In this document: positions 5,084 to 60,260 of the stretch, piece after piece
Numbering within the stretch: position 1 is the stretch's first letter
Layout of the letters: the number at the start of each line of letters is the position of its first letter
From: Candidatus Nanoarchaeia archaeon
GTDB lineage: Archaea; Nanobdellota; Nanobdellia; Woesearchaeales; DATDTY01
Direction: 5' to 3'
NCBI GenBank assembly: GCA_035290625.1
Contig: DATDTY010000051.1
Location: forward strand, 4,008-68,007
Length of the DNA stretch: 64,000 nt
Made by a program: the position numbers and the translations under genes
The notes under the pieces: generated by a model
Told to the model about the DNA's origin: nothing
Databases searched by the model: none
What the model saw: the letters and a program-made list of their open reading frames with translations, nothing else

Positions 5084-5095
5084 GGGGTACAACGC

Positions 5096-6550
5096 ATGCT
5101 ATTAGAGTGTCTCCTGGGAAAGGCCCAGGTTGCAGCAGTCGTCTGCAACCAATGGGGGGATACAGGCAAAGGAAAGATCGTTGATTTATTTGCAGCCCAG
5201 TGGGCTGACGTGATTGCAAGGGGAACTGGCGGGAATAACGCAGGCCATACCGTTATTGTGAACGGCAAGCAAAGGATATTCCATCTTCTTCCTTCAGGGA
5301 TTACCTATGATGAGCAGGGAAAGGTAAACTTAATGGGGAATGGAATGGTTATTGATCTTGGAGTTCTTTGCCGCGAGCTTGATGCTTTGGAAAAAGACGG
5401 TGGAACCTACCGGAATCTTATGATCAGCAGGGATGCCCAAGTCACTATGCCTTACCATATACTCAGGGATAAGGAAGATCAGTCTCAGGCAGCCGGAGGC
5501 ATCGGGACTACGGGAAGGGGCATAGGCCCATGCTATGCGGACAAGATAGCCAGGAGAGGGGTGGCAATTCGCGACCTCTATAATAAGGATATCCTTGCAG
5601 AGAAGATCAGGAAAGCTGCTCAATTCTATCCTGAGCAGAAGATTGAGAAAGATCGGATTGAAGAGATTGTTGAGCAGCTTCAGCCTCTCGCAGGCCGCAT
5701 CAAGCCCTATGTTCGGGACACGATTGGTGAAATGCACAGGTTTATCCAACAGGGAAAACATGTCCTTCTTGAGGGAGCGCAAGGATTGCTGCTAAGCATT
5801 GAGTACGGCACCTACCCCCACGTGACTTCATCTGACTGTTCTATCAACGGCACTGCTGCAGGAGTTGGATTGTCTGCGAGGATGGTGGATGCAACATTCG
5901 GGCTTGTTAAATTTCCCTTCATGACCCGTGTAGGAGGTGGGCCCTTTCCGACAGAGATCGGAGGATCTGCATCCGAAGCGGATTGTAGTAAGAAAGAGGT
6001 GACCAAGGAGTATGAATTGATTACATACGGAATTCCCTATACTAAGGGTGATGATGGTCTGATTGTGTATGACTGCAATCACAAGGATATAGGAGGCATG
6101 ATCAACTCTGAAGATCCTTTGATCCAATCAGTTGGGATTCGCCTTGCAGCAGGAGAATATGGAGCAACAACAGGACGGCCAAGAAGAGTCGGGTGGACTG
6201 ATGCGGTTGCCTTAAGATATGCTGTCCAAATCAATGGGCCGCTGCACCTTGTGCTGACAAAGGCGGATAGTCTGCATGCAGCAGGAGAATTCCGTGTATG
6301 CTTCGGTTATCGGCAAAACAATAAGAACGATTGTGTGGTCACAGAATTCGACAGGGATGAGAGATTCCTTAGGGGCATTCATCCCGAATACGCCAAGTAT
6401 GAGGGCTACGGTGGACTTGGAGATATACGGGGTTTTGAAGGTCTCCCAAATACCCTGCGGACAGCGATTGCTGATTTGGAAAGATTCACAGGATCTGATG
6501 CTGCAATCGTTTCTGTCGGGCCAGAGCAGAGCCACACGATAATCAGATAG
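5096..6550 (+). CDS. purA: Adenylosuccinate synthetase
   Basis: QWGDTGKGK P-loop-like motif and GGIGTTGRGIGP (GIGPxY) motif. 484 aa, longer than typical, so it carries insertions. Confidence 0.85.
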   Translation: MLLECLLGKAQVAAVVCNQWGDTGKGKIVDLFAAQWADVIARGTGGNNAGHTVIVNGKQRIFHLLPSGITYDEQGKVNLMGNGMVIDLGVLCRELDALEKDGGTYRNLMISRDAQVTMPYHILRDKEDQSQAAGGIGTTGRGIGPCYADKIARRGVAIRDLYNKDILAEKIRKAAQFYPEQKIEKDRIEEIVEQLQPLAGRIKPYVRDTIGEMHRFIQQGKHVLLEGAQGLLLSIEYGTYPHVTSSDCSINGTAAGVGLSARMVDATFGLVKFPFMTRVGGGPFPTEIGGSASEADCSKKEVTKEYELITYGIPYTKGDDGLIVYDCNHKDIGGMINSEDPLIQSVGIRLAAGEYGATTGRPRRVGWTDAVALRYAVQINGPLHLVLTKADSLHAAGEFRVCFGYRQNNKNDCVVTEFDRDERFLRGIHPEYAKYEGYGGLGDIRGFEGLPNTLRTAIADLERFTGSDAAIVSVGPEQSHTIIR

Positions 6551-6565
6551 GTTAGAGAACTAGAT

Positions 6566-7534
6566 TCACTCCTTCCTCAGCACTTCCCGTGAGATATGAG
6601 CGATTGAAGATATCATGGCCTTGAGATGCTCGAAGATTCGGATCAGGTCTTCAGATTGGTTTGGGATGGTTCGCATGAATTCTGTGATTAGGGGCAGCAT
6701 ATCTTTGGTCTGAAACTCGCTGGAAATCGCAAGCTGCAGGTCCTTGGTGTAGAAGGCATTCATTGCCTGCTCATAGAGCGGCTTTATTCTGGCGTAGAGA
6801 TCCTTCAGCCCTTTTTTCTGCCTTGCGTCAAGCTTTGCTGCTGCCAGAAACCTGCCGATCCTTTTGACATGGTCCCCTATTTCCTCAATCCTGATCACGA
6901 TAAGCCAGCGCGCAAAGAGGTAGGTATCCTTCACCCCGATTGATTTCAGGAAAGATGGATTTTGCTGGGCATAGTTGAGCAGCCGAAAGGAGAGATACGA
7001 GAGCCTGTTGATGTCCTGATCCCGGTGCTTGAGGGTTTCCGGGTTGTAGCCGTCAAGGCATTCAATCACATCTCCGAGCATGACTCTCAGCATCATGTCG
7101 ATGCGCCGGATTGTCGCATCAATAGAGACCTCTTTTAGGTCAATAAGGTCCTTGGCAACAATTTTAGTAGGAGTCTGCTCAATGATCTCCATCCCGACAA
7201 GGCTATACAGAGTCTCCCGGATCTCGGCAAGATGCCGGTCAACAGCCTGTTTGCCCTTGATCTCAATAAAGGTTGAGTTCTTCAGATACGCTGAGATGAT
7301 CTCCAGCTTGAGGTGCTTGATGTCCTTGTTTTCTGCTTCAATGATGATGGACTTGGTCTCCTTTGCAGAATGATCCTTCGGCGCAAGAATAAGATGATCT
7401 CCCTGCTCAAGGTAGTAGACCACGTCCCCCTTATGGAGGTTGTGGGAGTCCATCCACTCCTTGGGAAGCGAAACTACATACGAATTGACTCCAAACTTGA
7501 TGATTTTTCTGAAGTCTATATCCTCCACCCCCAT
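6566..7534 (-). CDS. AbrB/SpoVT-domain plus PhoU-domain regulator (archaeal PhoU homolog)
   Basis: Starts MGVEDIDFRKIIKFGVNSYVVSLPKEWMDSHNLHKGDVV (swapped-hairpin AbrB/MazE-type N-domain) followed by PhoU-like helices (EEIGDHVKRIGR). The 133-aa N-terminal extension of the ORF track reads through the AT-rich promoter region and is rejected. Confidence 0.65.
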   Translation of the reverse strand: MGVEDIDFRKIIKFGVNSYVVSLPKEWMDSHNLHKGDVVYYLEQGDHLILAPKDHSAKETKSIIIEAENKDIKHLKLEIISAYLKNSTFIEIKGKQAVDRHLAEIRETLYSLVGMEIIEQTPTKIVAKDLIDLKEVSIDATIRRIDMMLRVMLGDVIECLDGYNPETLKHRDQDINRLSYLSFRLLNYAQQNPSFLKSIGVKDTYLFARWLIVIRIEEIGDHVKRIGRFLAAAKLDARQKKGLKDLYARIKPLYEQAMNAFYTKDLQLAISSEFQTKDMLPLITEFMRTIPNQSEDLIRIFEHLKAMISSIAHISREVLRKE

Positions 7535-7648
7535 GCCAAAGCTATTGATAGCCTTAAATTCGAGTATATATAAGTTATATTGTATATAAGGTATATGGGC
7601 AATGTATATATAATTTTTGGTCTCATTCTTAGATAAGGAGGTGATAGC
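7535..7648. promoter_or_regulatory. AT-rich divergent promoter region with TATA-like repeats (tatatataagttatattgtatataaggtatat)
   Basis: Intergenic region between the divergent PhoU-like gene and the small acidic ORF. It has multiple TATA-like boxes and a strong SD (AAGGAGGTGA) before the GTG at 7649. Confidence 0.4.
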
Positions 7649-7801
7649 GTGAAAGAACAGGAGTATGCAGGGGCCAAAGAAGAATTTGAGCCAATAGAGG
7701 GAGTGATTTATGACGAGGAGGAGAGGAACGCCCTGCTTGAGAATGACGAGATCGCTCCCTGGGAAGAAGGATTCATGGATGGGTATGACGGGGCAGGGTG
7801 A
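7649..7801 (+). CDS. Small acidic protein (50 aa) with EEGFMDGYD motif
   Basis: GTG start 9 nt after a perfect SD AAGGAGGTGA. Paralogous to the ORF at 11748-11948 (shared EEF..IY..LL..EE[DG]GFM[DQ]GY[DE] pattern). Confidence 0.45.
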   Translation: MKEQEYAGAKEEFEPIEGVIYDEEERNALLENDEIAPWEEGFMDGYDGAG

Positions 7802-7893
7802 GATTTCATCGTCTGCCCTTTTTGCGAGGGTTTTTCCTATAGTTAACAATAGCGATAGGCTTTTAAAATATACAAGGTTACAGTCCATTTCAA

Positions 7894-9198
7894 ATGGTAT
7901 GTAGTGTAAAGATGGCAACCACGTACGAATCACCTTGCCTTGATAGTTCCGGGGACAATTCAGCCGCGGAGCAAGATGGATTAAGACAGGTTGATGAATT
8001 TACGAGACCTAAGATTATCCTTGTTAGTGGACCAAAAGGCGCGGGGAAGCGCGAAATTGCCCAACTCCTAGAGATACAAAAATATGGAGTTGTCATAAAG
8101 AAGCACACTACCCGGAGGCCATCAGATTCACCTCTCCCGTGGGGGATAGATGAGACCTTGTTGTTCACCTTTGTTTCACCTACCGAATTCGAAAGTCTTG
8201 AACAGCAAGGCGAATTCAGGTTTATAACTCAGTCACAAGATCACAGGTATGGCATTCATCAGAAATCATTAGAAGAGGCATTGGGGGACTCATCGTTGCA
8301 TACTCTTTCACTGGCATCAGGATACTCTTCGTTTCAGGATCATTATAAATTTTTTAATAAAGTGGCAAAGAATCATCCGAATAAACCGACCCTTGTATCT
8401 GTTCTAATCTATTCAACCCAAAGAGACCTCCAAGACAGCGTGCTGAAGAGCCAAGAATTGGTAACAAGTCAGATGCTCCACGATTATGCTAAGAAATGCC
8501 AGACGCTCTTGCGACATCAAGATGAATTTGATTATATTATACGTAACCCGCTGCCGTTTGGGTACCTGCTAAGAGACGAAAAAGCACAGATAACCCATTC
8601 TGAATATATCAACCGGACCACCTTGTTATTTGGAAAAATATTAGAATGGGAGAAATCCGAACAACGAAACCCCAATGATTCGATAGCCCACAATCACAAA
8701 AGGTTCGTCAATCATCTCATCAGTACCATTTTTTCAAAGTCTACGGAGGAAGTTTCGTCTTCGTTAGAAAACAACCATTTGGAAATCCGATTTACTGAAG
8801 GAGAGAGGGAGAGCTATGCGCAGTCAAAGCGTTATCCTAAAAGCAGCATCCCACAGGAGGTGAGAATCAGGGCCATGCACAGATCCTATGGTATTTGGAC
8901 TATGTATATCTCAAGCAAGATGGGGGCAGAATCAAGAAACATGACCCTTGATATGATCGCGAGGAGAGCGGGGATGATCTATGCGCAAAGAATACCCCAA
9001 GAGGACTCCACACTCTTGGCGCCTCTGAGCCAAATTACTGAGCTTGGAAGAACAAAAACAAATGCAATGATTCACGAGGGCGGGCTATTCAGTTTACGTG
9101 ATGTCATAGCTAAGCAGCACAATGCGCCGGTCTATGCAGTAAATATCGCTTTCATCTACAATCTGCCTCGGCACCAACAGCTTCAATGTACTCCTTAG
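7894..9198 (+). CDS. Guanylate-kinase-like P-loop domain fused to an uncharacterised C-terminal domain (paralog 1)
   Basis: N-terminal section matches GMP kinase landmarks: SGPKGAGK (P-loop), KKHTTRRP (GK TTR motif), F.FVS..EF, RYG, FDYIIRNP. The C-terminal 230 aa have no recognisable motif but are homologous to the C-terminus of the next gene. Lower GC than flanks. Confidence 0.6.
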   Translation: MVCSVKMATTYESPCLDSSGDNSAAEQDGLRQVDEFTRPKIILVSGPKGAGKREIAQLLEIQKYGVVIKKHTTRRPSDSPLPWGIDETLLFTFVSPTEFESLEQQGEFRFITQSQDHRYGIHQKSLEEALGDSSLHTLSLASGYSSFQDHYKFFNKVAKNHPNKPTLVSVLIYSTQRDLQDSVLKSQELVTSQMLHDYAKKCQTLLRHQDEFDYIIRNPLPFGYLLRDEKAQITHSEYINRTTLLFGKILEWEKSEQRNPNDSIAHNHKRFVNHLISTIFSKSTEEVSSSLENNHLEIRFTEGERESYAQSKRYPKSSIPQEVRIRAMHRSYGIWTMYISSKMGAESRNMTLDMIARRAGMIYAQRIPQEDSTLLAPLSQITELGRTKTNAMIHEGGLFSLRDVIAKQHNAPVYAVNIAFIYNLPRHQQLQCTP

Positions 9199-9307
9199 AG
9201 TTGCGCTCGCCTGAGTCTTAAGTATAATCCCACATAATCCCGGCAAGCGGGATGACCACGGCAGCAGTTAAACGATAGCCTTTTAAACGGCCGGGGGTTA
9301 ACCGATA

Positions 9308-10621
9308 GTGGGGGGAACTATGGAGATACCTTTTAGACATAATTCAAAAAAAGATCCAGATGCCAAGGAAGTGTCTCCCCTCGTGCTTATTTTGACCGGT
9401 CCACGGGCAGTGGGGAAGACAGAAATCAAAGACATCCTTACGGAGCGTAACTATGGATGGAGTCTCCCAAAGATAACTACAAGGGCCCCGCGAGAAGGTG
9501 AAACCCAAGTTAAGGATAAGGAATTTATTGATCAGAAGAGATTTGACACGCTCCAGAAGGAGGGCAAACTCTCAGTTACATGCGCATATAAGGGGTGCGA
9601 TTATGGAGTTCTTCAAGAAGTCGAACAGGAGGCATTAACAAAACAAGAGGATATCATTATCACTGCAACTGGCTTTGGGATATTTAAGGCATTTTCATCT
9701 CATTTTCCTGATGCTGTTTCGGTATTAGTTTATTCCAGTATCGATGAGTTGCTGCAAAGGAAAGTGCTTCGGGATAAGATTGTGACAGAGGCTTCACTTC
9801 TGGAAGAGTTTATCCAGGAAATGAAGAAGTATGAGGAGCACCAGGAGCTCTTTACCTATATCGTAGAGAATCCTTCACCCTTTGGATTTGCAGTCGGCGA
9901 TATTTTTAAGCAGGACCACGTTGCCCAAGTGGCTCGCGCTGCAAATCTTGTTGCGGCTGCACTCGAGTGGGAAAAGATCTATAGAGAAACACCAACATCA
10001 ATGACGCGGAATATGGGGTTTATCAATCATCTTGTGGGGGCCATTTCCGATGGGGGGACAATGAAACAGATTGAGAGACAAATAAAGAAGAAGGGAAGCT
10101 ACCAAATCAATTTTCCCAAAGATCTTCGCGGGAAATATGCACATGATACATCCACTGCTCTTGGGATGATTCCTGAAAGCGTCTCTATAAATCCTACTTG
10201 TCAAACGTATGGTGTAATATCGCTCTTTATCGATAATGGTGCTGGAGAACAGAGATATAACGGATATGAAAGAAAGATTATACTTGACCTGTTTGAGCGG
10301 AAGGCGGTAATCAAGGGCAACATGCATGCCATATATGCCGAGGTTGCTGATCAGGGTTACCCCGAACAAGATCTGTCCAGCTACGGAAAGGTTGCTATAG
10401 GGGGGGCAAATATTCAGGAGGGGGGGCTTATAACGTTGCGAAGGGACTTGGGGGTTCCAACACCGGACCAAGAACTTCATGGCTTAAATCTTGGGTTTGT
10501 TCGCCATGACGCCCAACTGCCGCTTAAACCTCAGGGGATATCACTGCAACGGCTCGCTGAAAAAGCCAGAAATCTCTATTCTCAGGCGCGAAGTTTTATG
10601 ATACCCAGGACCTATCTTTAG
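9308..10621 (+). CDS. Guanylate-kinase-like P-loop domain fused to an uncharacterised C-terminal domain (paralog 2)
   Basis: LTGPRAVGKTEI P-loop, ITTRAPREGE, CAYKGCDYGV, FTYIVENPSPFG. Shares ILEWEK, [RG]FINHL and EGGL[FI][ST]LR blocks with paralog 1. Stop codon overlaps the convergent gene at 10618. Confidence 0.6.
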   Translation: MGGTMEIPFRHNSKKDPDAKEVSPLVLILTGPRAVGKTEIKDILTERNYGWSLPKITTRAPREGETQVKDKEFIDQKRFDTLQKEGKLSVTCAYKGCDYGVLQEVEQEALTKQEDIIITATGFGIFKAFSSHFPDAVSVLVYSSIDELLQRKVLRDKIVTEASLLEEFIQEMKKYEEHQELFTYIVENPSPFGFAVGDIFKQDHVAQVARAANLVAAALEWEKIYRETPTSMTRNMGFINHLVGAISDGGTMKQIERQIKKKGSYQINFPKDLRGKYAHDTSTALGMIPESVSINPTCQTYGVISLFIDNGAGEQRYNGYERKIILDLFERKAVIKGNMHAIYAEVADQGYPEQDLSSYGKVAIGGANIQEGGLITLRRDLGVPTPDQELHGLNLGFVRHDAQLPLKPQGISLQRLAEKARNLYSQARSFMIPRTYL

Positions 10622-11595
10622 TCCTTGAGGGATCTAGGGGCCTTAGCAGGGTATTCCTGAAGGGAAAGGAGAATTTTTGTCAGTTCTACCAGGAATTCCA
10701 GGATCGGCTCCATGCTGGTTAGAATGAGAAGTTCTGCGGGAGGGATTTTCTCCTTCAAATCTTTTATCCTTCTGATATACATATCTCTGTTGTGGTACAT
10801 ATCGGTTACTCTGTTCGGGTCATATTTGTAGAAAATACCATAAAAGAGGTGTAGGTTTTTATAAATTAAGGTGATGTTCGTAATGGAAGAGTCATCCATC
10901 TTCTTTTTGAGCAAGGCAGCCTCACGAGCAGAATATTTTACGGTGTCACGAACTTTATCAAGCATGGCTATGGTGTGGTAGATCACTGTAACCTTTTCAG
11001 GATCAGGCGGATATCCTCTTTTGTTAAGGATTCTTAGGGTATAGCTTGCAAACTTTGTAACAAGCCCATGCTTGTCCTCTATCGTGTGGATTTTATCATT
11101 TTTATGCTGCTTCAGACCTTCGATAAAGGTTTCGAGCATATCCAGCAAAAGCATAAATATCCGGCGGAGAACCACTTCAAAGTCCTTGAACGACGGTTCC
11201 GACAAATCTTTCAACATACAGAAATCATCCTTGAAACTGAGGACTTCAACCCCAATGAGGCGCTCAACCTCAGTCCGAATAATGCTCCGCATGTCCACAA
11301 ATTCCCGTGTTCGGAAGTGATACGCAGAGGGCTTTGAAAAATGAATGCCTATCTCATCGAAACCTCTGATATATAAGCCGCGGATATAGATGATGATGGA
11401 TGTGCGGTCAAGACCAGAAACGTCAATCTCAATCTTTTTAACTTCCGGGATTCTCTCTTTGCTTACAACAATCTGTTGCCCCTTCTCCTCCACCTCGATC
11501 TCATCCCCCTTCCTGATGTTATGGCTAAGGCACCACTTCCTCGGCAATGAGACGAGCTGCGTTGAATGGCCTACCTGGATGATTTTCCGCTTCAT
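10618..11595 (-). CDS. AbrB/SpoVT-domain plus PhoU-domain regulator (second copy)
   Basis: MKRKIIQVGHSTQLVSLPRKWCLSHNIRKGDEIEV (AbrB-type N-domain) followed by a PhoU-like helical region. Same architecture and size (325 aa) as 6566-7534. Confidence 0.65.
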   Translation of the reverse strand: MKRKIIQVGHSTQLVSLPRKWCLSHNIRKGDEIEVEEKGQQIVVSKERIPEVKKIEIDVSGLDRTSIIIYIRGLYIRGFDEIGIHFSKPSAYHFRTREFVDMRSIIRTEVERLIGVEVLSFKDDFCMLKDLSEPSFKDFEVVLRRIFMLLLDMLETFIEGLKQHKNDKIHTIEDKHGLVTKFASYTLRILNKRGYPPDPEKVTVIYHTIAMLDKVRDTVKYSAREAALLKKKMDDSSITNITLIYKNLHLFYGIFYKYDPNRVTDMYHNRDMYIRRIKDLKEKIPPAELLILTSMEPILEFLVELTKILLSLQEYPAKAPRSLKD

Positions 11596-16396: not shown

Positions 16397-16490
16397 AGCC
16401 CCATGGTGTAGCGGTCAAATTCCTGTGAAGGAAGACGAAGCATCTTTGGTTCTGGGCCAAAGGACCTCGGTTCGAATCCGGGTGGGGCTA
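16397..16490 (+). tRNA. tRNA-Gln (anticodon CUG) with an about 20-nt insertion in the D-arm region (non-canonical intron)
   Basis: Acceptor AGCCCCA/TGGGGCT with discriminator A. Anticodon stem CTTTGG/CCAAAG with loop TTCTGGG (U33, CUG). T-arm CTCGG-TTCGAAT-CCGGG. 94 nt in total, so about 20 extra nt lie between the D-loop (GTGTAGCGGTCAA) and position 26. Confidence 0.6.
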
Positions 16491-38066: not shown

Positions 38067-38486
38067 TTAATCAGAGTCCTGCCTACCTGATTTTTTATGT
38101 TCTATCGTATCCGCGTCCTTCATTGCGGCAATCATCTGCTGAATGGCAATATAAGCTCCTGCTCCAAACATTTCTTCAGCTAAATCCTTTTTTGACATTG
38201 CTTTAAGCTCTTCTTTTCGTTCACTCCAAATATCCGGAAAAGCCTCTTCCATCAAAGAATTAGTCATGTTTTCAGGGATAATCTCTTCCATCTTGTCCAT
38301 AGGGATATCAACGTGGATTTCTCCTAAGTCTTCCCCTTTCGCCAATTCCCCTGCGTTCTGAAAGCAATCATAGCACATGTGCTTCTTTGATTTTTGCAGC
38401 ATATCCTTGGGGCATTCAATTTCCTTGCCGCAAAAAGTGCAGTTGACTTTTACTGATTCTTTCTTGTCTTCCCTGATATCCCTCAC
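38067..38486 (-). CDS. Zinc-ribbon protein (CxxC...CxxC)
   Basis: CTFCGKEIECP...CYDCF pair of CxxC knuckles near the N-terminus; acidic C-terminus. Confidence 0.4.
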   Translation of the reverse strand: MRDIREDKKESVKVNCTFCGKEIECPKDMLQKSKKHMCYDCFQNAGELAKGEDLGEIHVDIPMDKMEEIIPENMTNSLMEEAFPDIWSERKEELKAMSKKDLAEEMFGAGAYIAIQQMIAAMKDADTIEHKKSGRQDSD

Positions 38487-38537: not shown

Positions 38538-39761
38538 TCAGAGCTTATGATTCATCTTCAGTTTTTTTGTCTCAAGGTATTTCTGGTTGATCTCATTCGG
38601 CTTGGTTCTTAGAGGGATTGCCTTTTCAACCTCAATCCCGTATCCCTTAAGCTGCTCCTCTTTTTCCGGGTTGTTTGTGAGCAGCCGGATGCTTTTCACC
38701 TTGAGGTGCTTGAGCAGTGCGGCTGCAGGCAGATAGTCCCTGCTATCCGCCTCAAAGCCAAGCTCGATATTTGCGTCATGCGTATCCTTTCCCTTGTCCT
38801 GGAGGCTATAGGCTTTGATTTTCTGCACAAGGCCAATCCCCCTCCCTTCCTGGTTCAGATAGATGAGAAGCCCTGCAGGCTCTCTCTGGATCATCTTCAG
38901 CGCCTTCATCAGCTGCTCCCTGCAATCGCACCGCAGCGAGTAGAGGGTCTCTGAGGTAAAACAGCTCGAATGAACCCGTACAAGGACGTTGGAATCATCC
39001 ACCTTCCCTTTAGAGAGCACAACGATCTCCTGGCCTGCAACAGAAAAGACGCTGATCTCAAAATCCCCGTACAGCGTTGGAAGCTTGGATGATGCCTCAC
39101 GCACAACTGAGAGCTCAGACTGCCTGTCAGCAAAGTATTCCTTAAGCCCTGTGACTGAGGGGAGTATTCCGTCTGCGTTCCCAAAATGCTCTTCTTTGTG
39201 CCATCCGGTCAGGACTCCAATAAATGGGATCTCAGCATTCTTTGCAGTTTCCAGATCATGGACGCTGTCTCCAACATAGACGACCTGATCAGGCCTCAGC
39301 CCATACCTCTCAAGAAAAACCTGAAAGATCATCTTGCTGGGCTTTTCATATCCCAGATCTTCTGATCCCTGGATGCTGCTAAAATACTCCTTGGGGATCC
39401 CTGTCTGGCTCAGCAGGGTAATAAGGCTTTCTCTGGATCTTGAGGAAATGATGTGGAGAGCATACCCTGCTTGCTTGAGGAATTTGAGGGTCTCTGAAGC
39501 GCCTTCAATCTGCCTCCTCGGAAATTCCTTTGCTATCTCCAGATAGGTCTGCTTGAAAAGCTCAGGATGCGCCCTTGGCCAGAGCTTCCGGATGATGACT
39601 TCCCAGGGCTTGCCGAACTGGGATGCAATCTCCTCATCTGTTGGAATGCGAAGATCAAGCTTCTCTGCTGCCTTTTTATGGCTTTCTAACCCTATCTCTT
39701 TGTATTGGATAAGAGTATCATCAAAATCAAAGACGATCGCCTTGATGGTGTTCTTGTTCAT
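38538..39761 (-). CDS. ribA: Fusion protein: HAD-superfamily phosphatase domain plus GTP cyclohydrolase II (RibA)
   Basis: N-terminal FDFDDTL (HAD motif I) and GDSVHD (motif IV). The C-terminus has the RibA zinc motif CFTSE...RCDCREQ, YLNQEGRGIGL and LLTNNPEK. Confidence 0.75.
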   Translation of the reverse strand: MNKNTIKAIVFDFDDTLIQYKEIGLESHKKAAEKLDLRIPTDEEIASQFGKPWEVIIRKLWPRAHPELFKQTYLEIAKEFPRRQIEGASETLKFLKQAGYALHIISSRSRESLITLLSQTGIPKEYFSSIQGSEDLGYEKPSKMIFQVFLERYGLRPDQVVYVGDSVHDLETAKNAEIPFIGVLTGWHKEEHFGNADGILPSVTGLKEYFADRQSELSVVREASSKLPTLYGDFEISVFSVAGQEIVVLSKGKVDDSNVLVRVHSSCFTSETLYSLRCDCREQLMKALKMIQREPAGLLIYLNQEGRGIGLVQKIKAYSLQDKGKDTHDANIELGFEADSRDYLPAAALLKHLKVKSIRLLTNNPEKEEQLKGYGIEVEKAIPLRTKPNEINQKYLETKKLKMNHKL

Positions 39762-39874: not shown

Positions 39875-40951
39875 TTATTTGCCGTCCTGCCTGTAGCGTG
39901 CAGTAATGAGGAGATCTGGCCCAAAGCGCTGGACATCCTGAAATTCAAGGCCAATTGCATTGCTGATTTCAGGGATCCTGCCCCCCATCACCGATATGCC
40001 GTCTCCCAGGAGCTTTGGGACAACGATGAAGTAAAAAGCATCCACATGCCTTCCCTTGATGAAGGATGTGAAGACCTTTGAGCCGCCCTCAACAAAGAGG
40101 TGGCTGATGTTCCTTTGCCCAAGCTTCTCCAAAAGATCCGTAATGTCTATGCCAGTTCCGCTGCGTTTGCACAGCAGAACCTCTGCCCTTGCCGTAAGGA
40201 GCTCTTGTTTCTCTTTTTTTAAATCTTCCGGAACTGCGATGATGGTCCTGCCAGGCTGGCTGAAGATTCTTGCCTCAGGGAAAATATCCCCTGAATGTGA
40301 CAATACGATCCGGGTTGGATAGTATACCATTTCAGTTCTCGCGCTAAGCTGAGGATTGTCCTCCCTGACAGTGCTGGCTCCAACAAGGATGCCATCAATA
40401 GTATTCCGAAAATCATGAACCCAGAGCCGCGACTGCTCTGAGCTTATCCACTGGGAACTATGAGAAACTGTTGCAATCTTGCCATCAAGTGTTATGGCTG
40501 CCTTTAATGAGACATACGGAAGCCCTGTGGTTATCCATTTGAAGAACGGAGCATTGAGAGCCTTGGCTTGCTCCTCTGCAATGCCGCATACCACCTCTAT
40601 TCCTGCATCCCTGAGTTTCTGCAGTGATTTTCCATTGGTTTTGGGATTTGGGTCTTTTGTTGCAACAATGACTTTTTTGATGCCTGAATCTATGATCCTG
40701 TCAACACAAGGAGGAGTTCTCCCATAGTGAAAACAGGGCTCAAGATTGACGATCATGGTTGCGCCTTCTACTGATTCTGTGCAGGCGTTCAGACAATTGA
40801 TCTCTGCATGAGGCTCTCCAGCTTTTTGGTGGTGTCCTTTCCCGATTATCCTTCCATTTTTGACAATCAGGCAGCCGACATAGGGATTAGGATGGGGGAA
40901 ACCTTGCCTAGCAAGCTCCAGAGCCTGCTCCATGAGTTGGGTGATATCCAT
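39875..40951 (-). CDS. ribD: Riboflavin biosynthesis deaminase-reductase (RibD)
   Basis: Deaminase zinc motif HAEINCL...LEPCFHYGRTPPC, then a DHFR-like reductase half. The probable start is MDITQLMEQALELA. The ORF-track start at 41029 would overlap the upstream gene by about 120 nt. Confidence 0.75.
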   Translation of the reverse strand: MDITQLMEQALELARQGFPHPNPYVGCLIVKNGRIIGKGHHQKAGEPHAEINCLNACTESVEGATMIVNLEPCFHYGRTPPCVDRIIDSGIKKVIVATKDPNPKTNGKSLQKLRDAGIEVVCGIAEEQAKALNAPFFKWITTGLPYVSLKAAITLDGKIATVSHSSQWISSEQSRLWVHDFRNTIDGILVGASTVREDNPQLSARTEMVYYPTRIVLSHSGDIFPEARIFSQPGRTIIAVPEDLKKEKQELLTARAEVLLCKRSGTGIDITDLLEKLGQRNISHLFVEGGSKVFTSFIKGRHVDAFYFIVVPKLLGDGISVMGGRIPEISNAIGLEFQDVQRFGPDLLITARYRQDGK

Positions 40952-41915: not shown

Positions 41916-42275
41916 TCACTCTTGGTAATACTCCGTCCCTAACGCCAGGCTAATCTCTGCCTTCTTCAGCTCTTTTCCGATGTAGGCTATGTGGTCCTTG
42001 GCAGTAAACCACTTGAGGTTATGCTTTTTCTCATATTCAAACAGTTTTGTATAGATGCCCTGGGCCTTGCTTCCGATCACTTCAAGGAGGATCTCATGCT
42101 TGTAGTTGCAGACCGCCAGATGGATTTTCAGCGTATCGAATTTCGGCTTGATCAGGACATAGCAGCCAGGATCTGCCTTGAAGTCCTTATAAGGATCATA
42201 AGGAGCGCATTCTATCTTTTCAAAAGAATCTGCTACGGTCTTGTCCTTGACCCAGGTCGGGCGTTCATCTGCCAT
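41916..42275 (-). CDS. Hypothetical protein (119 aa), last gene of the nrdJ-cobA operon
   Basis: Same strand, 85 nt after cobA. No motif recognised. Confidence 0.35.
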   Translation of the reverse strand: MADERPTWVKDKTVADSFEKIECAPYDPYKDFKADPGCYVLIKPKFDTLKIHLAVCNYKHEILLEVIGSKAQGIYTKLFEYEKKHNLKWFTAKDHIAYIGKELKKAEISLALGTEYYQE

Positions 42276-42360: not shown

Positions 42361-42894
42361 CTAAAACTCAATCCCTTTCCTGCCAGTCTCTCCCTTATCG
42401 AAGTAGTGCTTCAAAGGCTTCATTTCAGTGACAAGGTCTGCCATCTCGCAGAGCTGCTGAGGCGCCCCTCTTCCTGTGAGGATAATATTCAGCCTTTCCG
42501 GCTTTTGCTTGAGGAGCTCAACAACATCCTCGACCCTGATCAGATTGAGGGTGATGGCCACATTCACCTCATCAAGGACAAGGAGATGAAGCTCAGGATC
42601 CTGCATCTGCTCACGCGCAAGGTGAAGCGCTTTGTACGCCTCCCTCTGATGCGTCTCGAGAGGGTATTTGTCATCCAGAATTCCCACAAAGCCCTTTCCC
42701 GACGCATAGATCGTCACATGAGGATTCAGGAGGACAGGGATGGAATCCCTCTCTCCTGTATGCCAGGTTCCTTTTACAAACTGGATAACACAGGATTTCA
42801 GGCCATACCCTGCAGCCCTCAGGCAGACCCCGAGGGAGGCTGTTGTCTTTCCCTTGCCGTCTCCTGTGTAGATGTGGACGACTCCTTTTTTCAT
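42361..42894 (-). CDS. cobA: Cob(I)alamin adenosyltransferase (CobA/CobO/BtuR family)
   Basis: IYTGDGKGKTTASLG P-loop near the N-terminus, the size and pattern of ATP:corrinoid adenosyltransferase. ATGA overlap with nrdJ. Confidence 0.8.
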   Translation of the reverse strand: MKKGVVHIYTGDGKGKTTASLGVCLRAAGYGLKSCVIQFVKGTWHTGERDSIPVLLNPHVTIYASGKGFVGILDDKYPLETHQREAYKALHLAREQMQDPELHLLVLDEVNVAITLNLIRVEDVVELLKQKPERLNIILTGRGAPQQLCEMADLVTEMKPLKHYFDKGETGRKGIEF

Positions 42895-44894
42895 GGTGCT
42901 CCTGAAGTGTATACCTGATCTGACCTGCTTCCATCACGGTATACAGTAATCCCCTTGCAGCCGGATTTATAGGCAAGAAGGAATGCGTTTTCGATATCTT
43001 CGATGGATGCACCGTTGGGGATATTGATGGTCTTTGAAATAGAATTATCCACATATTCCTGGAAGGCTGCCTGCATCCTGATATGCCACTCAGCTGGGAT
43101 TTCCATTGCTGTGACAAAGACCTTCTTCATCTCAATGGTAAGGTTCTTGGTTTCCTTGATGTTGCCTGTCTGGCAGACTTGGCTGATGAGCTCCTCTGAA
43201 TACAGATCCTTCTCCCTGAGCGCCTGTAGGAAATATTTATTTACGATCACTGCTTCCTGGTCTCCCATCAGCTTCCGCTTGTAGGCCAATGCATAGACCG
43301 GCTCTATCCCAAAGCTGGTTCCTGCCAGGAGGCTGCGGGAACCTGTGGGGGAAATTGTTGTTATGGTTGCATTGCGTATCTTTTTGCTCCGATAGCTGGA
43401 GGTCTCCCATAACGGAAATGGCCCTTTCTCTTCTGCAAGCTCTTCAGAAGCAGTCCGGGCTCCCTTGCGTATGGTCTGCATAACCTTCTTGCCAGTTTCC
43501 AGGCCAAGCTGGCTGTTGTAGGGAATCCTCATCTGATAGAGCATATCTGCAAAGCCGAGAATCCCAAACCCGATCCTCCTCAGCTCCTTTGTCCGTGTGG
43601 TCACAGCATTGAGCGGAAGCTTGCACGCATCAACCGCATTATCAAGGAAACGGACTGCGATAGGCACAGCTTCCTCCAGCCTGTCATAATCAACCTCCTT
43701 GTCCTTGACAAATTTGCTCAGGTTGAGCGCTCCAAGCGGCACCCCTTCATAGGGAAACAGGGGCTGGTCTCCGCACGGGTCTGTGGTCTCAATCCTCCCT
43801 ATCTTTTTTAGCGGATTGTCTTTATTGATCGTGTCAATGAAGAGTATCCCCGGCTCGCCATTCTTCCATGCCATCGTTGCAAGCAGATTAAAGGTCTGCC
43901 GGGCTGAGTTTCTTCCCACAACTTTCCCTGTTGCCGGGCTCATCAGGTCATATTGCTCATCCTTCTCCAGCGCCTTCATGAACGCATCAGTGATCTCAAC
44001 GCTGAGGTTGAAATTTGTGAGCTTATTTTCTCCCTCCTTCGCTGTGATGAAGTGGATGATGTCAGGGTGATGGACACTGAGGCTCCCCATGTTTGCGCTT
44101 TTCCTGTTTCCCGGCAATTTTGTCAGCTCAGTTGCATGGTCAAAAAGCTCAAGGAAATCAAGCGGGCCATGCGCATAGCCCTTCATGGTGGAAAGGATTC
44201 CTCTTGGCCGTATTTTTGAGAATGAAAATCCAATCCCTCCCCCAACCCTCTGGATCAGCGCCTTTTCATAGAGCGTCTTGAAGATGTTCTTCATCGAGTC
44301 TTCAAGCGGCAGGACAAAGCAGCTGAAGAGCTGAGAGCTTTCTGTGCCTGCCTCAGCAAGGATCCTCCCCCCAGGGATGAATTCAAGCGAATTCAGAACT
44401 GAAAAGAATTTTTCTTCTATCGGCTTTGCATCATTGCCATATCTCCGCTCAACTATCGCCATTGCTTTGGCAACCCGCCGGAACATTTCAACAGGGGTCT
44501 CAATCGTGTTGCCCTCCTCGTCTTTCAAGAGGTACTTCTCCCTTGCGATCCGAAGCCCGTCGTTGTCAAAGGGAGCATCGTCCTCCTTCAGGCCCTTGCG
44601 GAGCTCTGCGTGCTTCTGCCTGTAGAGGATATACGCCTTTGCCGTTTTTGGAAATCCCTTCTCCATCAAAGCCTCTTCTACAGTATCCTGGATCTCCTCT
44701 ACTGCAGGGATAGAATTCTTGTGGAACTTCTTATTGATCCTTTCCGTAACTGCATCAGTCACTGCCCAGGCCTGTTGCTCCGAACCCTCATCCGTTGCCT
44801 CAAAGGCCTTGTCCAGAGCCTTTGCTATTCGCGCCTTGTCAAAGTCAGCGATAGAGCCGTCCCGCTTGCGTATTTTTGAGATTCCCTCTGCCAT
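42891..44894 (-). CDS. nrdJ: Adenosylcobalamin-dependent (class II) ribonucleotide reductase
   Basis: N-terminal ATP-cone-like region and the active-site TDPCGDQPL (C-G-[ED]-Q loop). 667 aa, no separate small subunit. Confidence 0.85.
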
Positions 44895-50101: not shown

Positions 50102-50737
50102 ATGAAAGCCATACTATTTGATTCCTGGGGCACTCTGATCGAGAACGGCGTCAAGCCAAGCCCGCTGAGGCAGGTTCAGGAGATCTTGAGGGTCAGGCTT
50201 CCCTTTTCAGAATTTGTCCAGCAGTTTGAGAAGTCATTCATGACCAGGAAATACACAGACCTAGGAGAAGCATTTTACGCAGCTATTGATGATCTTGGGA
50301 TCCGTGTTGCTCCTTTTGTAGTCGAGAAGCTCATCGGGCTCTGGAATAAGAACATGCTGTTTGCGAAGCCGTTTGAGGATATCACTGAGCTCACAAAGCT
50401 TAAGCAGAAGTACAAAATCGGGCTGATTTCAAACACGGATCCGTTTTCGCTCACTCCGGTGCTGGAGAAGCACGATCTTACCAAGTATTTTGATGCCGTA
50501 GTGCTGTCATGCGACGCAGGCGTTCTGAAGACTGACCCAAAGATGTATGAGCTCTGCCTGCAGCAGCTGGGGGTTTCCAAGGATGAATGCGTGATGGTAG
50601 GGGATTCTATGCAGACTGATATCGAGGGCGCAAAACGCGCAGGGATCAGAGCCATACTGATGGACCGCAAGGACAGAAGGGAGTATGATGAAAAGGTAAC
50701 GAGCCTGAAGCAGCTTGCTGAGGTGCTTGGTGGGTGA
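50102..50737 (+). CDS. HAD-superfamily hydrolase (variant motif I: DSWGT)
   Basis: AILFDSWGTLIEN (motif I with Trp in place of the second Asp), LISNTD (motif II) and GDSMQTDIEGAKRAG (motif IV). Confidence 0.65.
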   Translation: MKAILFDSWGTLIENGVKPSPLRQVQEILRVRLPFSEFVQQFEKSFMTRKYTDLGEAFYAAIDDLGIRVAPFVVEKLIGLWNKNMLFAKPFEDITELTKLKQKYKIGLISNTDPFSLTPVLEKHDLTKYFDAVVLSCDAGVLKTDPKMYELCLQQLGVSKDECVMVGDSMQTDIEGAKRAGIRAILMDRKDRREYDEKVTSLKQLAEVLGG

Positions 50738-51159: not shown

Positions 51160-51312
51160 TGCCGCTGTAGCTCAGCCTGGTTAGAGCGCTACATGCTTGT
51201 TTTCGCAAGTCAGCGAGGCTCATATGTTTGAGCGATGATCCGAAAGGAGATGACATACTCAGGCGATAACTGGGTGACGTAGAGGTCAGGGGCTCAAATC
51301 CCCTCAGCGGCA
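51160..51312 (+). tRNA. Intron-containing tRNA (about 153 nt; roughly 78-nt insertion in the anticodon region; anticodon unresolved, CUU/Lys possible)
   Basis: Acceptor GCCGCTG/CAGCGGC with discriminator A. Canonical D-arm TAGCTCAGCCTGGTTAGAGCG (A14, G18G19, A21). T-arm AGGGG-CTCAAAT-CCCCT with C48, G53:C61. Between position 26 and CGTAG (39-43) lies a structured insert containing the CTTG-TTTTCG-CAAG hairpin. A31/C39 would mispair if the intron sits at 37/38. Confidence 0.6.
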
Positions 51313-59081: not shown

Positions 59082-60260
59082 TCAAAATCGGGGCTGCAGA
59101 CTTGCCAGGCTCTCCCTCAACTCAGAGTGCTTCAGGCCGTAGACCTGAAGAGGGATATGATGCAGATGGCTGTCTAAAGCCTGCCTGCACGCCATTGCCC
59201 CTTTTCTGACACCATGGCTATGGCCGGAAACAGCATCTGTAAACTGGATCACGAGGTCATTGCCAAGCCTCTGAACAAGACCGGGGATGTGAGAAGCTCC
59301 TACCCTGCAAGCAAGGCCCATGGAGCTCTTAACCCCGTGCCAGGGCTTGGCAAGGCTGCGTTCCTCAATAAGCCTCTTGTCAATCACGTCATGGACATGG
59401 ACAGAAGCATCAGCATTCATTGGTCCCGGCAGGGAGCCGATATGAACGATGTCTGCTCCCGCCAGCCTGCAGAGTTTTGCGCAGGCATGCGAGGACATAT
59501 GGGGCATCCTGACGCTTCGCTGCAGCTGGATAGCAACGGGAACATCAGCCTCACGAAGGTTCTGGAGTGAAGAAAAACCTGAAAGGTTGAGTACAACTGC
59601 CTCACAGCCAAGAGTATGGGCAAAATCTGCCCTCTTCACTGTCTCCGAACCCGTCACATTTGGCATATACATCTTATGCCCTCCGTTCAGCTGCTCAGCT
59701 TTTTTCTTTCTCCGATGCGTCTGAAAGACGCGTTCCTTGAAACGATTCGATGGAAGGTTTGTGAGGGAAGGGGCATCAGCAACGATATCCATCCCTGTCC
59801 ATGCCTCATAGGCATTCATGGAAAACTCATACGAAGACCCCTGCAGCAATGAAGCCTCAAGCAGGGCCTGGTTGGTCCCAATCAGTTTTCGGATTCCCTT
59901 CACGCCAAATCTTGGGCCCGGAAAGGATTTCACTAAAGTCCGCGGAAATTGCATATCAAGAAGCGTTGCCCTCTTTACAGAAGGAAGCTGCAGATGGCCA
60001 GTAAGGCTATGGCTGATCTGATCTGCGTTCCCCGGCTCAAAGAGATCAGCAGGATAGCGTATCAACGCAACCTGTCCCCCCTTGTCAAGGGATACCACCG
60101 CGGGAGCGTCTCCTCTAACAAATGCCTCCGGAGATACGCCAATGCTTGCAGCAGCAACATGCCTGCAGGCATCCTGGAATGAAACTGCCTGAGCAGGCTC
60201 GATTGCATACTCGGCAATGACGTCAGACTTGCTGAAACGTGTTGACAGGAACTGGAACAT
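59082..60260 (-). CDS. RuBisCO large-subunit-like protein (RLP) with substituted carbamylation-site lysine
   Basis: C-terminal blocks MPHMSSHACAKLCRLAGADIVHIG, WHGVKSSMGLACRVGASHIPGLV and QFTDAVSGHSHG parallel the RuBisCO H294/R295, H327/K334 and GGG loops. The segment aligning to GGLDFTKDDE reads GMDIVADAPS, so K201 and E204 appear replaced. Confidence 0.65.
   Translation of the reverse strand: MFQFLSTRFSKSDVIAEYAIEPAQAVSFQDACRHVAAASIGVSPEAFVRGDAPAVVSLDKGGQVALIRYPADLFEPGNADQISHSLTGHLQLPSVKRATLLDMQFPRTLVKSFPGPRFGVKGIRKLIGTNQALLEASLLQGSSYEFSMNAYEAWTGMDIVADAPSLTNLPSNRFKERVFQTHRRKKKAEQLNGGHKMYMPNVTGSETVKRADFAHTLGCEAVVLNLSGFSSLQNLREADVPVAIQLQRSVRMPHMSSHACAKLCRLAGADIVHIGSLPGPMNADASVHVHDVIDKRLIEERSLAKPWHGVKSSMGLACRVGASHIPGLVQRLGNDLVIQFTDAVSGHSHGVRKGAMACRQALDSHLHHIPLQVYGLKHSELRESLASLQPRF

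Follow-up and report, generated by a model that had tools for sequence, protein, structure and literature searches.

HAD phosphatase domain fused to GTP cyclohydrolase II in archaeal riboflavin operons, a candidate for the ARPP phosphatase

The fusion protein and its distribution

A stretch of 64,000 nucleotides from Candidatus Nanoarchaeia archaeon, a tiny archaeon of groundwater (GenBank assembly GCA_035290625.1, contig DATDTY010000051.1, positions 4,008 to 68,007 of the forward strand), termed the "window" in the following, contains on its reverse strand a gene for a protein that combines a HAD-superfamily phosphatase domain with a GTP cyclohydrolase II (RibA) domain. The gene is the last of a group of riboflavin biosynthesis genes, and its HAD domain is probably the phosphatase for 5-amino-6-ribitylaminouracil 5'-phosphate (ARPP), an intermediate of this pathway. 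The features of the gene are listed with their positions in the window, (-) indicating the reverse strand.

38538..39761, (-): gene for the HAD phosphatase/GTP cyclohydrolase II; ATG start, 407 amino acids plus stop codon, one open reading frame (ORF)
39132..39761, (-): HAD-IA (C1-cap) phosphatase domain, amino acids 1-210, from HAD_2, invariant motifs, and Foldseek; candidate ARPP phosphatase
39714..39728, (-): HAD motif I, DFDDT, with Asp12 (nucleophile), Asp14 (general acid/base), and Thr16, from the translation and alignments
39441..39446, (-): HAD motif II region, Ser106-Ser107, where strand IIS ends, from the translation
39342..39344, (-): HAD motif III, Lys140, part of the invariant pair K140-P141
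39255..39272, (-): HAD motif IV, GDSVHD, with the Mg2+ ligands Asp165 and Asp169; G164, D165, and D169 invariant
39102..39131, (-): interdomain linker ADRQSELSVV, amino acids 211-220, 10 residues, a low-confidence block in the AlphaFold2 model
38538..39101, (-): GTP cyclohydrolase II (RibA) domain, amino acids 221-407 plus stop codon, from TIGR00505, phmmer, and Foldseek
38922..38963, (-): RibA zinc site Cys267-X10-Cys278-X-Cys280, CFTSETLYSLRCDC, from the translation, aligned to Escherichia coli RibA

Both halves of the protein were recognized by family models. Pfam HAD_2 covered amino acids 9-183 with 123.8 bits (cutoff, 23.8; E = 1e-35), and the HAD-IA model TIGR01549 yielded 56.6 bits (cutoff, 23.3), while the score of the HAD domain was below the respective cutoff for all specific NCBIfam HAD models. 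Pfam GTP_cyclohydro2 covered amino acids 222-383 with 195.4 bits (cutoff, 23.3; E = 6.5e-58), the NCBIfam equivalog-domain model TIGR00505 for ribA gave 227 bits and was above its trusted cutoff of 205.85, and NF001591 gave 226.5 bits on the RibA half versus a cutoff of 148. The RibA half could be aligned end to end with E. coli RibA (PDB 2bz0; phmmer, 4e-47). In this alignment, C267, C278, and C280 were opposite the Cys triad C54/C65/C67 of the E. coli protein, and the segments KAYSLQD and DSRDY were opposite KIRAYALQD and DERDF, which are conserved Tyr/Arg segments. The roles of these zinc-binding Cys and of the catalytic Tyr and Arg positions are presumably those of 2BZ0. The Cys triad was invariant among the HAD-RibA fusions. 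On the HAD side, D12, D14, and T16 were invariant in alignments of 5, 10, and 11 sequences, including relatives without riboflavin linkage, as were K140-P141 and G164, D165, and D169 across the HAD domain alignments; the position of motif II was Ser or Thr in all fusions, with Thr in P0006 (P and L numbers denote related proteins and loci, respectively).

A DHBP synthase domain (DHBP, 3,4-dihydroxy-2-butanone 4-phosphate), PF00926, had no Pfam match in the HAD-RibA protein, and the RibBA equivalog models reached 230 bits versus a cutoff of 569. The RibA half was aligned to positions 198-404 of NF006803, which means from the RibBA domain boundary on. The linker between the two domains was 10 residues shorter in P0005 and P0006, and a whole RibB domain occupied this site in P0137.

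The AlphaFold2 model of the 407-amino-acid protein had a mean predicted local distance difference test (pLDDT) value of 91.2, and its sole weak block was the linker at amino acids 211-220 (pLDDT of 67). The predicted template modeling score (pTM) of 0.58 means that the relative orientation of the HAD and RibA domains was undefined. Predicted helices at amino acids 21-77, located between the strands 8-11 and 101-105, represent the cap between motifs I and II; the cap (amino acids 17-100) includes a conserved G50-x-P52 ... W61-P62 segment. In Foldseek comparisons, the C-terminal domain matched 2bz0_B with a template modeling (TM) score of 0.90 (target), a root mean square deviation of 1.7 Å, and 48% identity, and the N-terminal domain matched C1-capped HAD-IA structures, with 3d6j, which was also the best neighbor by sequence, on top at a TM score of 0.85.

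The fusion is not an assembly or frameshift artifact because the identical protein was present on at least 22 independently assembled contigs and a continuous two-domain ORF existed in four other clusters. These contigs belong to assemblies of several samples (JGI, ENA, Logan, and NCBI), with the same neighborhood in each case. At NCBI, the protein HLD43278.1 is labeled only as "GTP cyclohydrolase II [Candidatus Nanoarchaeia archaeon]." In a collection of 5.8 billion protein clusters, HAD-RibA proteins formed five clusters at 90% identity, all of them on archaeal contigs. The full-length query returned four other full-length HAD-RibA clusters (P0003 to P0006, 42 to 49% identity) and one fragment; the remaining matches were bacterial RibBA or RibA proteins aligned with the C-terminal half only. 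An exhaustive HMMER scan of 1.84 billion representatives at 50% identity found the whole profile as a single stretch only in P0004, P0006, and the fragment P0002. All five fusions had retained every catalytic residue of the HAD domain and the zinc site of RibA in the alignment. Word-index protein searches with the HAD domain missed known fusions and were unusable for counting the members of the family.

A HAD/RibA fusion is absent from the curated list of riboflavin gene fusions in 983 prokaryotes, in which RibA is fused to RibB, an uncharacterized domain, RibDr_f, COG3236, or ACAD, and in which the sole HAD fusion is that with archaeal riboflavin kinase, Rfk_a/HAD, in 2 of the 983 prokaryotes (PMC4921024 Table S2A). 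Full-text literature searches did not yield a description of a HAD-RibA fusion either, nor one with another demonstrated substrate. An earlier note on this DNA, made from the sequence alone, had described a complete HAD domain with DxDxT and GDSVHD motifs, which agrees with the translation and Pfam, and its in-frame fusion to a RibA with the zinc-binding Cys motif, which is borne out by the one ORF of 407 codons and the TIGR00505 score above the cutoff. Missing catalytic residues had been named there as an argument against a phosphatase; upon alignment, all were present and invariant. The further fusions looked for were found in the form of the four additional clusters plus other fusion orders.

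The broader HAD group consists of abundant stand-alone proteins of about 215 amino acids in bacteria of the candidate phyla radiation (CPR) and in DPANN archaea. Other domain combinations were also observed. A HAD of the same broad group is joined to a TsaE domain (PF02367) in P0306 (367 amino acids), tandem GTP cyclohydrolase II domains occur in P0138 (600 amino acids) and in P0141 (545 amino acids, RibB plus two RibA stretches), and P0159 and P0187, both with about 990 amino acids, contain three GTP cyclohydrolase II stretches each.

Riboflavin operons and the HAD clade

Two riboflavin genes precede the HAD-RibA gene, which starts 113 nt after ribD, so that the order of transcription is the ribC-ribH fusion, ribD, and HAD-RibA.

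39875..40951, (-): ribD, bacterial-type bifunctional deaminase/reductase, 358 amino acids from Met27 of the ORF; TIGR00326, 344.5 bits
40908..41825, (-): fused archaeal-type riboflavin synthase (RibC) and lumazine synthase (RibH), 305 amino acids; TIGR01506 and TIGR00114

In the 327-amino-acid ORF of RibC-RibH, which starts at an upstream GTG, TIGR01506 covered amino acids 25-175 and TIGR00114 amino acids 183-308; gene calls on other contigs give 305 or 327 amino acids. RibC and RibH are fused in the window and encoded by separate neighboring genes in five of five related loci (L001, L003, L016, L019, and L179). This archaeal RibC/RibH fusion, which is absent from the curated list of riboflavin fusions of PMC4921024, is a second lineage-specific fusion within the same operon.

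A HAD of the same clade was located beside rib genes at seven loci, the window and the following six, with varying gene orders.

L001 (P0003): divergent rbkR; ribC-ribH-ribD-HAD/ribA
L003 (P0006): rbkR-ribC-ribH-ribB-ribD-HAD/ribA, on a contig with Spt4, Rpb7, and S24e
L004 (P0005): ribD-HAD/ribA
L016 (P0137/P0288): ribC-ribH-ribD-[HAD-RibB-RibA], on an archaeal contig with A-type ATPase and deoxyhypusine synthase
L019 (P0295), Candidatus Woesearchaeota metagenome-assembled genome: rbkR-ribC-ribH-ribD-ribB-HAD, with a stand-alone HAD
L179 (P0298): rbkR-ribC-ribH-ribB-HAD, followed by an unrelated Lon-like gene

Every HAD-RibA fusion with a known context (window, L001, L003, and L004) is the end of a riboflavin operon. 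In L003, RibB is encoded by a separate, bacterial-like gene. Since RibB was kept here as its own gene, the HAD domain has joined the pathway in addition to RibB and does not replace it. Provided that the HAD domain is the ARPP phosphatase, L003 covers all steps from GTP and ribulose 5-phosphate to flavin mononucleotide (FMN) in one operon, and L016 contains the whole pathway in four genes. The protein P0137 of L016, with 606 amino acids, unites HAD, RibB, and RibA (Pfam), and its HAD domain is orthologous to that of the window. Other orders of the domains were found by Pfam in P0163 (451 amino acids, RibA-HAD) and P0190 (675 amino acids, RibB-RibA-HAD).

The clustering with ribD and ribC-ribH described in the earlier note was confirmed by the TIGR00326, TIGR01506, and TIGR00114 matches. 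The statement that the HAD domain takes the place of RibB is correct for the window protein but not for its relatives, in which RibB is retained either as a domain between HAD and RibA or in the form of a gene of its own. The reported lack of ribB holds for the window only, in which no RibB was found by tblastn with the RibB of L003 or by a Pfam survey of about 45 main ORFs.

The HAD of L019 is a stand-alone protein of 210 amino acids with 45% identity to the domain of the window, and the start of its gene overlaps the stop of ribB; no ribA was present within the 12.4 kb of L019. Its closest relative is P0298, the HAD of L179, and the operon of L179 contains neither ribA nor ribD. Because these stand-alone HADs of the clade reside in operons without ribA, the HAD follows the late steps on either side of the phosphatase reaction and not RibA as such.

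A neighbor-joining tree of 137 HAD domains, which is a simple distance tree without support values, placed the riboflavin-linked archaeal HADs into one clade of 13 members, composed of the window HAD, P0003/4, P0005/6, P0137, P0295, P0298, P0299 from locus L018, and four members without a known context. Eight of the nine members with a known context were fused to riboflavin genes or part of an operon with them. The HADs of P0163 and P0190 branched outside this clade and are therefore the result of independent fusion events.

Outside the clade, no riboflavin genes were near the stand-alone HADs P0121 to P0124 and P0296 (30 to 39% identity), a result that helps to set the limits of the clade and adds no support to the assignment. 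Riboflavin operon genes were also absent next to more distant HADs (up to 37% identity) at 78 genome and 80 metagenome loci among the matches listed, which are samples from genome and metagenome scans with the HAD alignment. The contigs of the window itself were not among the matches listed in the metagenome scan, and these 80 loci serve only as a negative control. As an exception among the matches listed, a stand-alone RibA paralogue is encoded at a distance of about 3 kb at two Nocardia loci. At these loci, L030 (5277-8639, (+) strand) and L038, the matched HAD domain lies at the C terminus of a STAND-type protein of 1,120 amino acids with alpha/beta-hydrolase, NB-ARC, TPR, and HAD domains. 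The stand-alone GTP cyclohydrolase II paralogue (L030, 4341-4985, (-) strand) is the divergent neighbor of the STAND-type gene, and an AMP-binding enzyme and dihydroorotate dehydrogenase are encoded nearby. Moreover, L016 contains a separate HAD_2 protein of 215 amino acids (4807-5454, (+) strand) three genes upstream of ribC, which shares only 27% identity with the fused HAD, carries an additional insertion in the cap, and does not belong to the same clade.

The candidate reaction and its alternatives

The HAD domain is likely to be an ARPP phosphatase (EC 3.1.3.104) inside a bifunctional enzyme of the riboflavin pathway, with the substrate deduced from the operon and fusion context instead of from homology. 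The RibA domain would convert GTP into 2,5-diamino-6-ribosylamino-4(3H)-pyrimidinone 5'-phosphate (DARPP), a compound that would be deaminated and reduced by the adjacent RibD, yielding ARPP. Removal of the 5'-phosphate of ARPP would be the task of the HAD-IA domain, by the usual HAD mechanism via an aspartyl-phosphate intermediate at Asp12, with Asp14 as general acid/base and Mg2+ bound to Asp165 and Asp169. The dephosphorylated product (ARP) would feed the fused RibH-RibC protein, with RibH as the consuming domain. The fusion would tie synthesis of the phosphatase to that of the first, rate-limiting enzyme, and the benefit is presumably co-expression and a fixed stoichiometry with this slow, flux-controlling enzyme. 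Channeling is unlikely because RibD acts between the RibA and the HAD steps.

ARPP was chosen as substrate for several reasons. Its dephosphorylation is the only step of the pathway without another candidate in the otherwise complete operons L003 and L016, and the ARPP phosphatases known outside Aquifex are all HAD enzymes (PMC13151069, PMC7017516). Even where ribA is absent (L019 and L179), the clade remains associated with the late genes ribB, ribH, and ribC and with rbkR, and independent HAD lineages were captured in RibA or RibBA fusions. A small archaeal (DPANN) clade that is almost constant in riboflavin operons may thus be read as committed to the pathway and not as a promiscuous housekeeping phosphatase. 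In archaea, the ARPP step is an acknowledged gap (PMC8305020).

Several observations weigh against this assignment. The substrate specificity of a HAD enzyme cannot be read from its sequence. Foldseek comparison of the predicted model confirmed both folds and did not separate an ARPP phosphatase from a phosphoglycolate phosphatase, CbbY, or a pyrophosphatase; phosphoglycolate phosphatases, CbbY, and the pyrophosphatase BT2127, with similar scores, and AlnB were further structural neighbors of the N-terminal domain. The two fused activities represent non-consecutive steps of the pathway, and ribB is not part of the window, so that the pathway may be incomplete in this organism. The riboflavin-linked loci were found via the HAD or the fusion, so that the constant presence of the HAD is partly a product of the search, and the locus counts are samples. 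Around the clade member of L018 (41% identity), 8.7 kb were free of riboflavin genes. Finally, BLASTP versus E. coli YigB, a proposed ARPP phosphatase, aligned only the segments around motifs I and IV (26 and 68 residues; E of 5e-4 and 0.05), and the YigB equivalog NF008018, which gives 495 bits with YigB itself, is not among the 25 families listed of the 64 matched by the window HAD. The match with YbjI was confined to motif IV (E of 0.009). As judged from these comparisons, the window HAD is not orthologous to YigB or YbjI, the similarity being at the level of the motifs.

The HAD domain may alternatively be a housekeeping phosphatase with a broad specificity for sugar phosphates, phosphoglycolate, or nucleotides, and its fusion to RibA a neutral accident of gene order without a dedicated function in riboflavin synthesis. 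Generic families indeed gave the best matches (CTE7, REG-2-like, phosphoglycolate phosphatase, and YjjG nucleotidase), with each score under the respective cutoff. CPR bacteria and DPANN archaea contain hundreds of stand-alone relatives with 30 to 38% identity, which carry the annotation phosphoglycolate phosphatase-like and are not linked to riboflavin genes, and L018 is likewise devoid of such a linkage. A neutral accident, however, should hardly persist at 42 to 49% identity over at least five clusters with invariant catalytic residues, and the HAD recurs in a triple fusion, as a stand-alone operon member, and in independent fusions of other HAD lineages. This explanation is unlikely. In plants, a HAD domain is fused to riboflavin kinase in the FMN hydrolase/riboflavin kinase, and the window HAD could be an FMN hydrolase or a flavin homeostasis phosphatase that sets the balance between FMN and riboflavin instead of contributing to biosynthesis. 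Fusions of a HAD domain to riboflavin kinase also exist in prokaryotes as Rfk_a/HAD (2 of 983; PMC4921024 Table S2A), and most ARPP-active HADs also cleave FMN, as do about 30% of the HADs (PMC13151069, PMC7017516). The kinase is, however, neither the fusion partner, which is RibA or RibBA, nor the neighboring gene, which is ribB. Co-transcription of an FMN hydrolase with rbkR (L003, L019, and L179) would be futile, and the operons would be left without another candidate for the obligatory ARPP step, which renders such a role quite improbable.

Since RibA specifically is the physical partner in the fusion, the HAD domain might also be an accessory of this enzyme, either a PpaX/BT2127-like pyrophosphatase for the pyrophosphate derived from GTP or a nucleotidase for a GMP side product. 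RibA releases some pyrophosphate and 7 to 10% GMP (PMC13151069), a weak PpaX match exists (NF009804, 71 bits versus a cutoff of 218), and the pyrophosphatase BT2127 is one of the structural neighbors in Foldseek. Stand-alone members of the clade occur, however, in operons without ribA (L019 and L179), RibA itself is indicated to hydrolyze pyrophosphate within a single turnover (PMC13151069), and the sequence match with BT2127 (3qub; E of 9.6e-4) was the weakest of 41 PDB matches and far below those with phosphoglycolate phosphatase-like HADs. An accessory function is therefore very improbable, and the identity as a HAD pyrophosphatase of the PpaX/BT2127 type was largely rejected on the basis of the PpaX score under the cutoff, the marginal BT2127 match, and the absence of ribA from L179. 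Even less can be said in favor of a damage control or directed overflow enzyme that prepares DARPP or its deaminated product, both reactive and early in the pathway, for disposal by dephosphorylation. Riboflavin intermediates are reactive, and the COG3236 N-glycosidase fused to RibA or RibD is a documented analogue for damage control (PMC4921024 Table 4, Table S2A), but positive evidence for such a role is lacking, and it would leave the phosphatase step empty in the otherwise complete L003 and L016. It is the most improbable of these explanations.

The assignment as ARPP phosphatase, which was already proposed in the earlier note, gained support from the conserved fusion in operons, the triple fusion, the stand-alone HADs of the clade, and the independent fusions. 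Repeated independent fusion would suggest selection to tie the phosphatase to the entry of the pathway. It is plausible that the archaeal HAD clade represents the first ARPP phosphatase committed to an operon, as well as the first candidate from archaea for this reaction. The chances are about even for a wider claim, in which the clade would be the first truly pathway-committed ARPP phosphatase and would fill the archaeal gap at EC 3.1.3.104, in opposition to the view of promiscuous housekeeping enzymes, with HADs of at least three lineages fused independently to RibA or RibBA.

For ARPP dephosphorylation, alone among the steps of riboflavin biosynthesis, no dedicated enzyme is generally accepted. 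A HAD fused to RibA or RibBA, or otherwise constant in compact riboflavin operons, is a concrete candidate and the best one so far, easy to express and with a directly measurable specificity. The HAD clade can be used for the annotation of DPANN genomes, in which the protein is named only "GTP cyclohydrolase II." Some genome-reduced DPANN archaea retain a compact riboflavin gene set, with four to six genes in the complete sets of L003 and L016. If the wider claim is true, such fusions would serve generally as a means to track down the "missing" riboflavin phosphatase of other genomes, and the prevailing view that this step is left to redundant, promiscuous housekeeping phosphatases would be contradicted. 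The advance in enzymology is incremental because HAD ARPP phosphatases are already known, but a long-standing question has been sharpened. The HAD lineage and the architectures are new, and the class of the reaction is not.

Surroundings of the operon and relation to known systems

The riboflavin genes of the window are flanked by the following genes.

42891-44894, (-): class II-like ribonucleotide reductase with ATP-cone, upstream of the riboflavin genes
42361-42894, (-): CobA/CobO corrinoid adenosyltransferase, following the ribonucleotide reductase gene
41916-42275, (-): small PterinBD-DUF4346 protein, directly upstream of the ribC-ribH fusion
38067-38486, (-): Cys-rich protein of 139 amino acids without a family, directly downstream of HAD-RibA

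The gene pair for the ribonucleotide reductase and B12 activation thus adjoins the flavin synthesis genes, in the same order on all contigs of the species. The 139-amino-acid protein has two CxxC pairs and an acidic C-terminal half and did not match Pfam or NCBIfam; L003 also encodes a small CxxC protein downstream of the fusion, which had no similarity to it in tblastn. No rbkR was found in the window by tblastn with RbkR from L003 or in the Pfam survey of about 45 ORFs, ArfA and a CTP-dependent riboflavin kinase were likewise not found there, and Rfam indicated no FMN riboswitch or other regulatory RNA near the operon.

Candidatus Nanoarchaeia belongs to the Nanobdellota and thus to the DPANN archaea. 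Archaeal genes of the window encode a family-B DNA polymerase, Cdc6/Orc1, the ribosomal protein S3Ae, FttA/aCPSF1, and a proteasome subunit. The window also contains a form III-like homologue of the RuBisCO large subunit with 392 amino acids (59082-60260, (-) strand), which is common in nucleotide salvage pathways of DPANN archaea, and intron-containing tRNAs. The latter are probably represented by two over-long tRNA matches of 94 and 152 nt at 16397-16490 and 51161-51312 ((+) strand); ARAGORN left the former unassigned with a four-base anticodon call and missed the latter. Tandem proteins of about 435 amino acids with weak guanylate kinase domains (7894-9198 and 9308-10621) are flanked on the opposite strand by MazE/AbrB-type domain proteins (6566-7933 and 10618-11595), and this group (6566-11595) adjoins genes for an IMP dehydrogenase-like protein and adenylosuccinate synthetase. 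A second, stand-alone HAD family protein of 211 amino acids (50102-50737, (+) strand) shares 28% identity with the fused domain. It has DSWGT as motif I and thus no Asp at position +2, as in dehalogenase-like or atypical HADs, so that no canonical DxDxT phosphatase other than the fused domain was seen in the window.

The RibA domain shares about 57% identity with RibBA-type proteins from CPR bacteria, Brevinematales, Ignavibacteria, and Nitrospira and about 50 to 61% with its fellow fusions. Because these identities saturate at about 55 to 57% in all comparisons, they do not show whether the fused RibA domains are monophyletic, nor do they point to a donor or to a direction of transfer. The GC content around the operon, 0.465 to 0.497, is inside the range of the window. 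The lateral acquisition of the HAD-RibA gene suggested in the earlier note is no more than plausible. RibA and RibD have been reported in some archaeal RbkR regulons (PMC5397151 Table 1).

Compared with known systems, the C-terminal domain is that of a typical RibBA-type GTP cyclohydrolase II, and both RibBA and HAD-RibA are two-domain proteins that join non-consecutive steps. The N-terminal domain of the window protein is, however, a HAD and not DHBP synthase, and the relative P0137 holds HAD, RibB, and RibA. With YigB, the HAD domain shares the HAD-IA class, the C1 cap, the DxDxT motif, and the proposed reaction, and both reach about 85 bits on the generic model TIGR02253 (CTE7). YigB stands alone and is a scattered, promiscuous, and non-essential enzyme, whereas the window HAD is fused to or in an operon with riboflavin genes. 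The Cof-type proteins YbjI, YcsE, YwtE, and YitU are also members of the HAD superfamily and demonstrated or proposed ARPP/FMN phosphatases (PMC7017516), but they belong to subclass IIB with a large C2 cap, and Hydrolase_3, the family of the Cof-type proteins, had no Pfam match in the window protein. The protein would work like YigB, PyrP, or YcsE and is yet outside those families, with E. coli YigB and YbjI covered by the sequence comparison.

HAD enzymes have also been assigned to the ARPP step in Arabidopsis (PyrP1/AtcpFHy1, PyrP2, and PyrP3) and in Bacteroides thetaiotaomicron (EFI-501083), the latter partly via its genomic context (PMC7017516, PMC13151069); none of them has been reported as a RibA fusion. 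AaHFP from Aquifex aeolicus is likewise a proposed specific, pathway-relevant ARPP phosphatase (PMC12051542, PMC13151069), but it has the unrelated histidine phosphatase fold and is neither fused to nor clustered with riboflavin genes. The same logic, in which a HAD recruited by fusion reveals a missing phosphatase step, applies to Rfk_a/HAD, the thiamin HAD-IA/IB, and TenA-HAD (PMC4921024 Table 4), with partner enzymes and pathways other than those of HAD-RibA.

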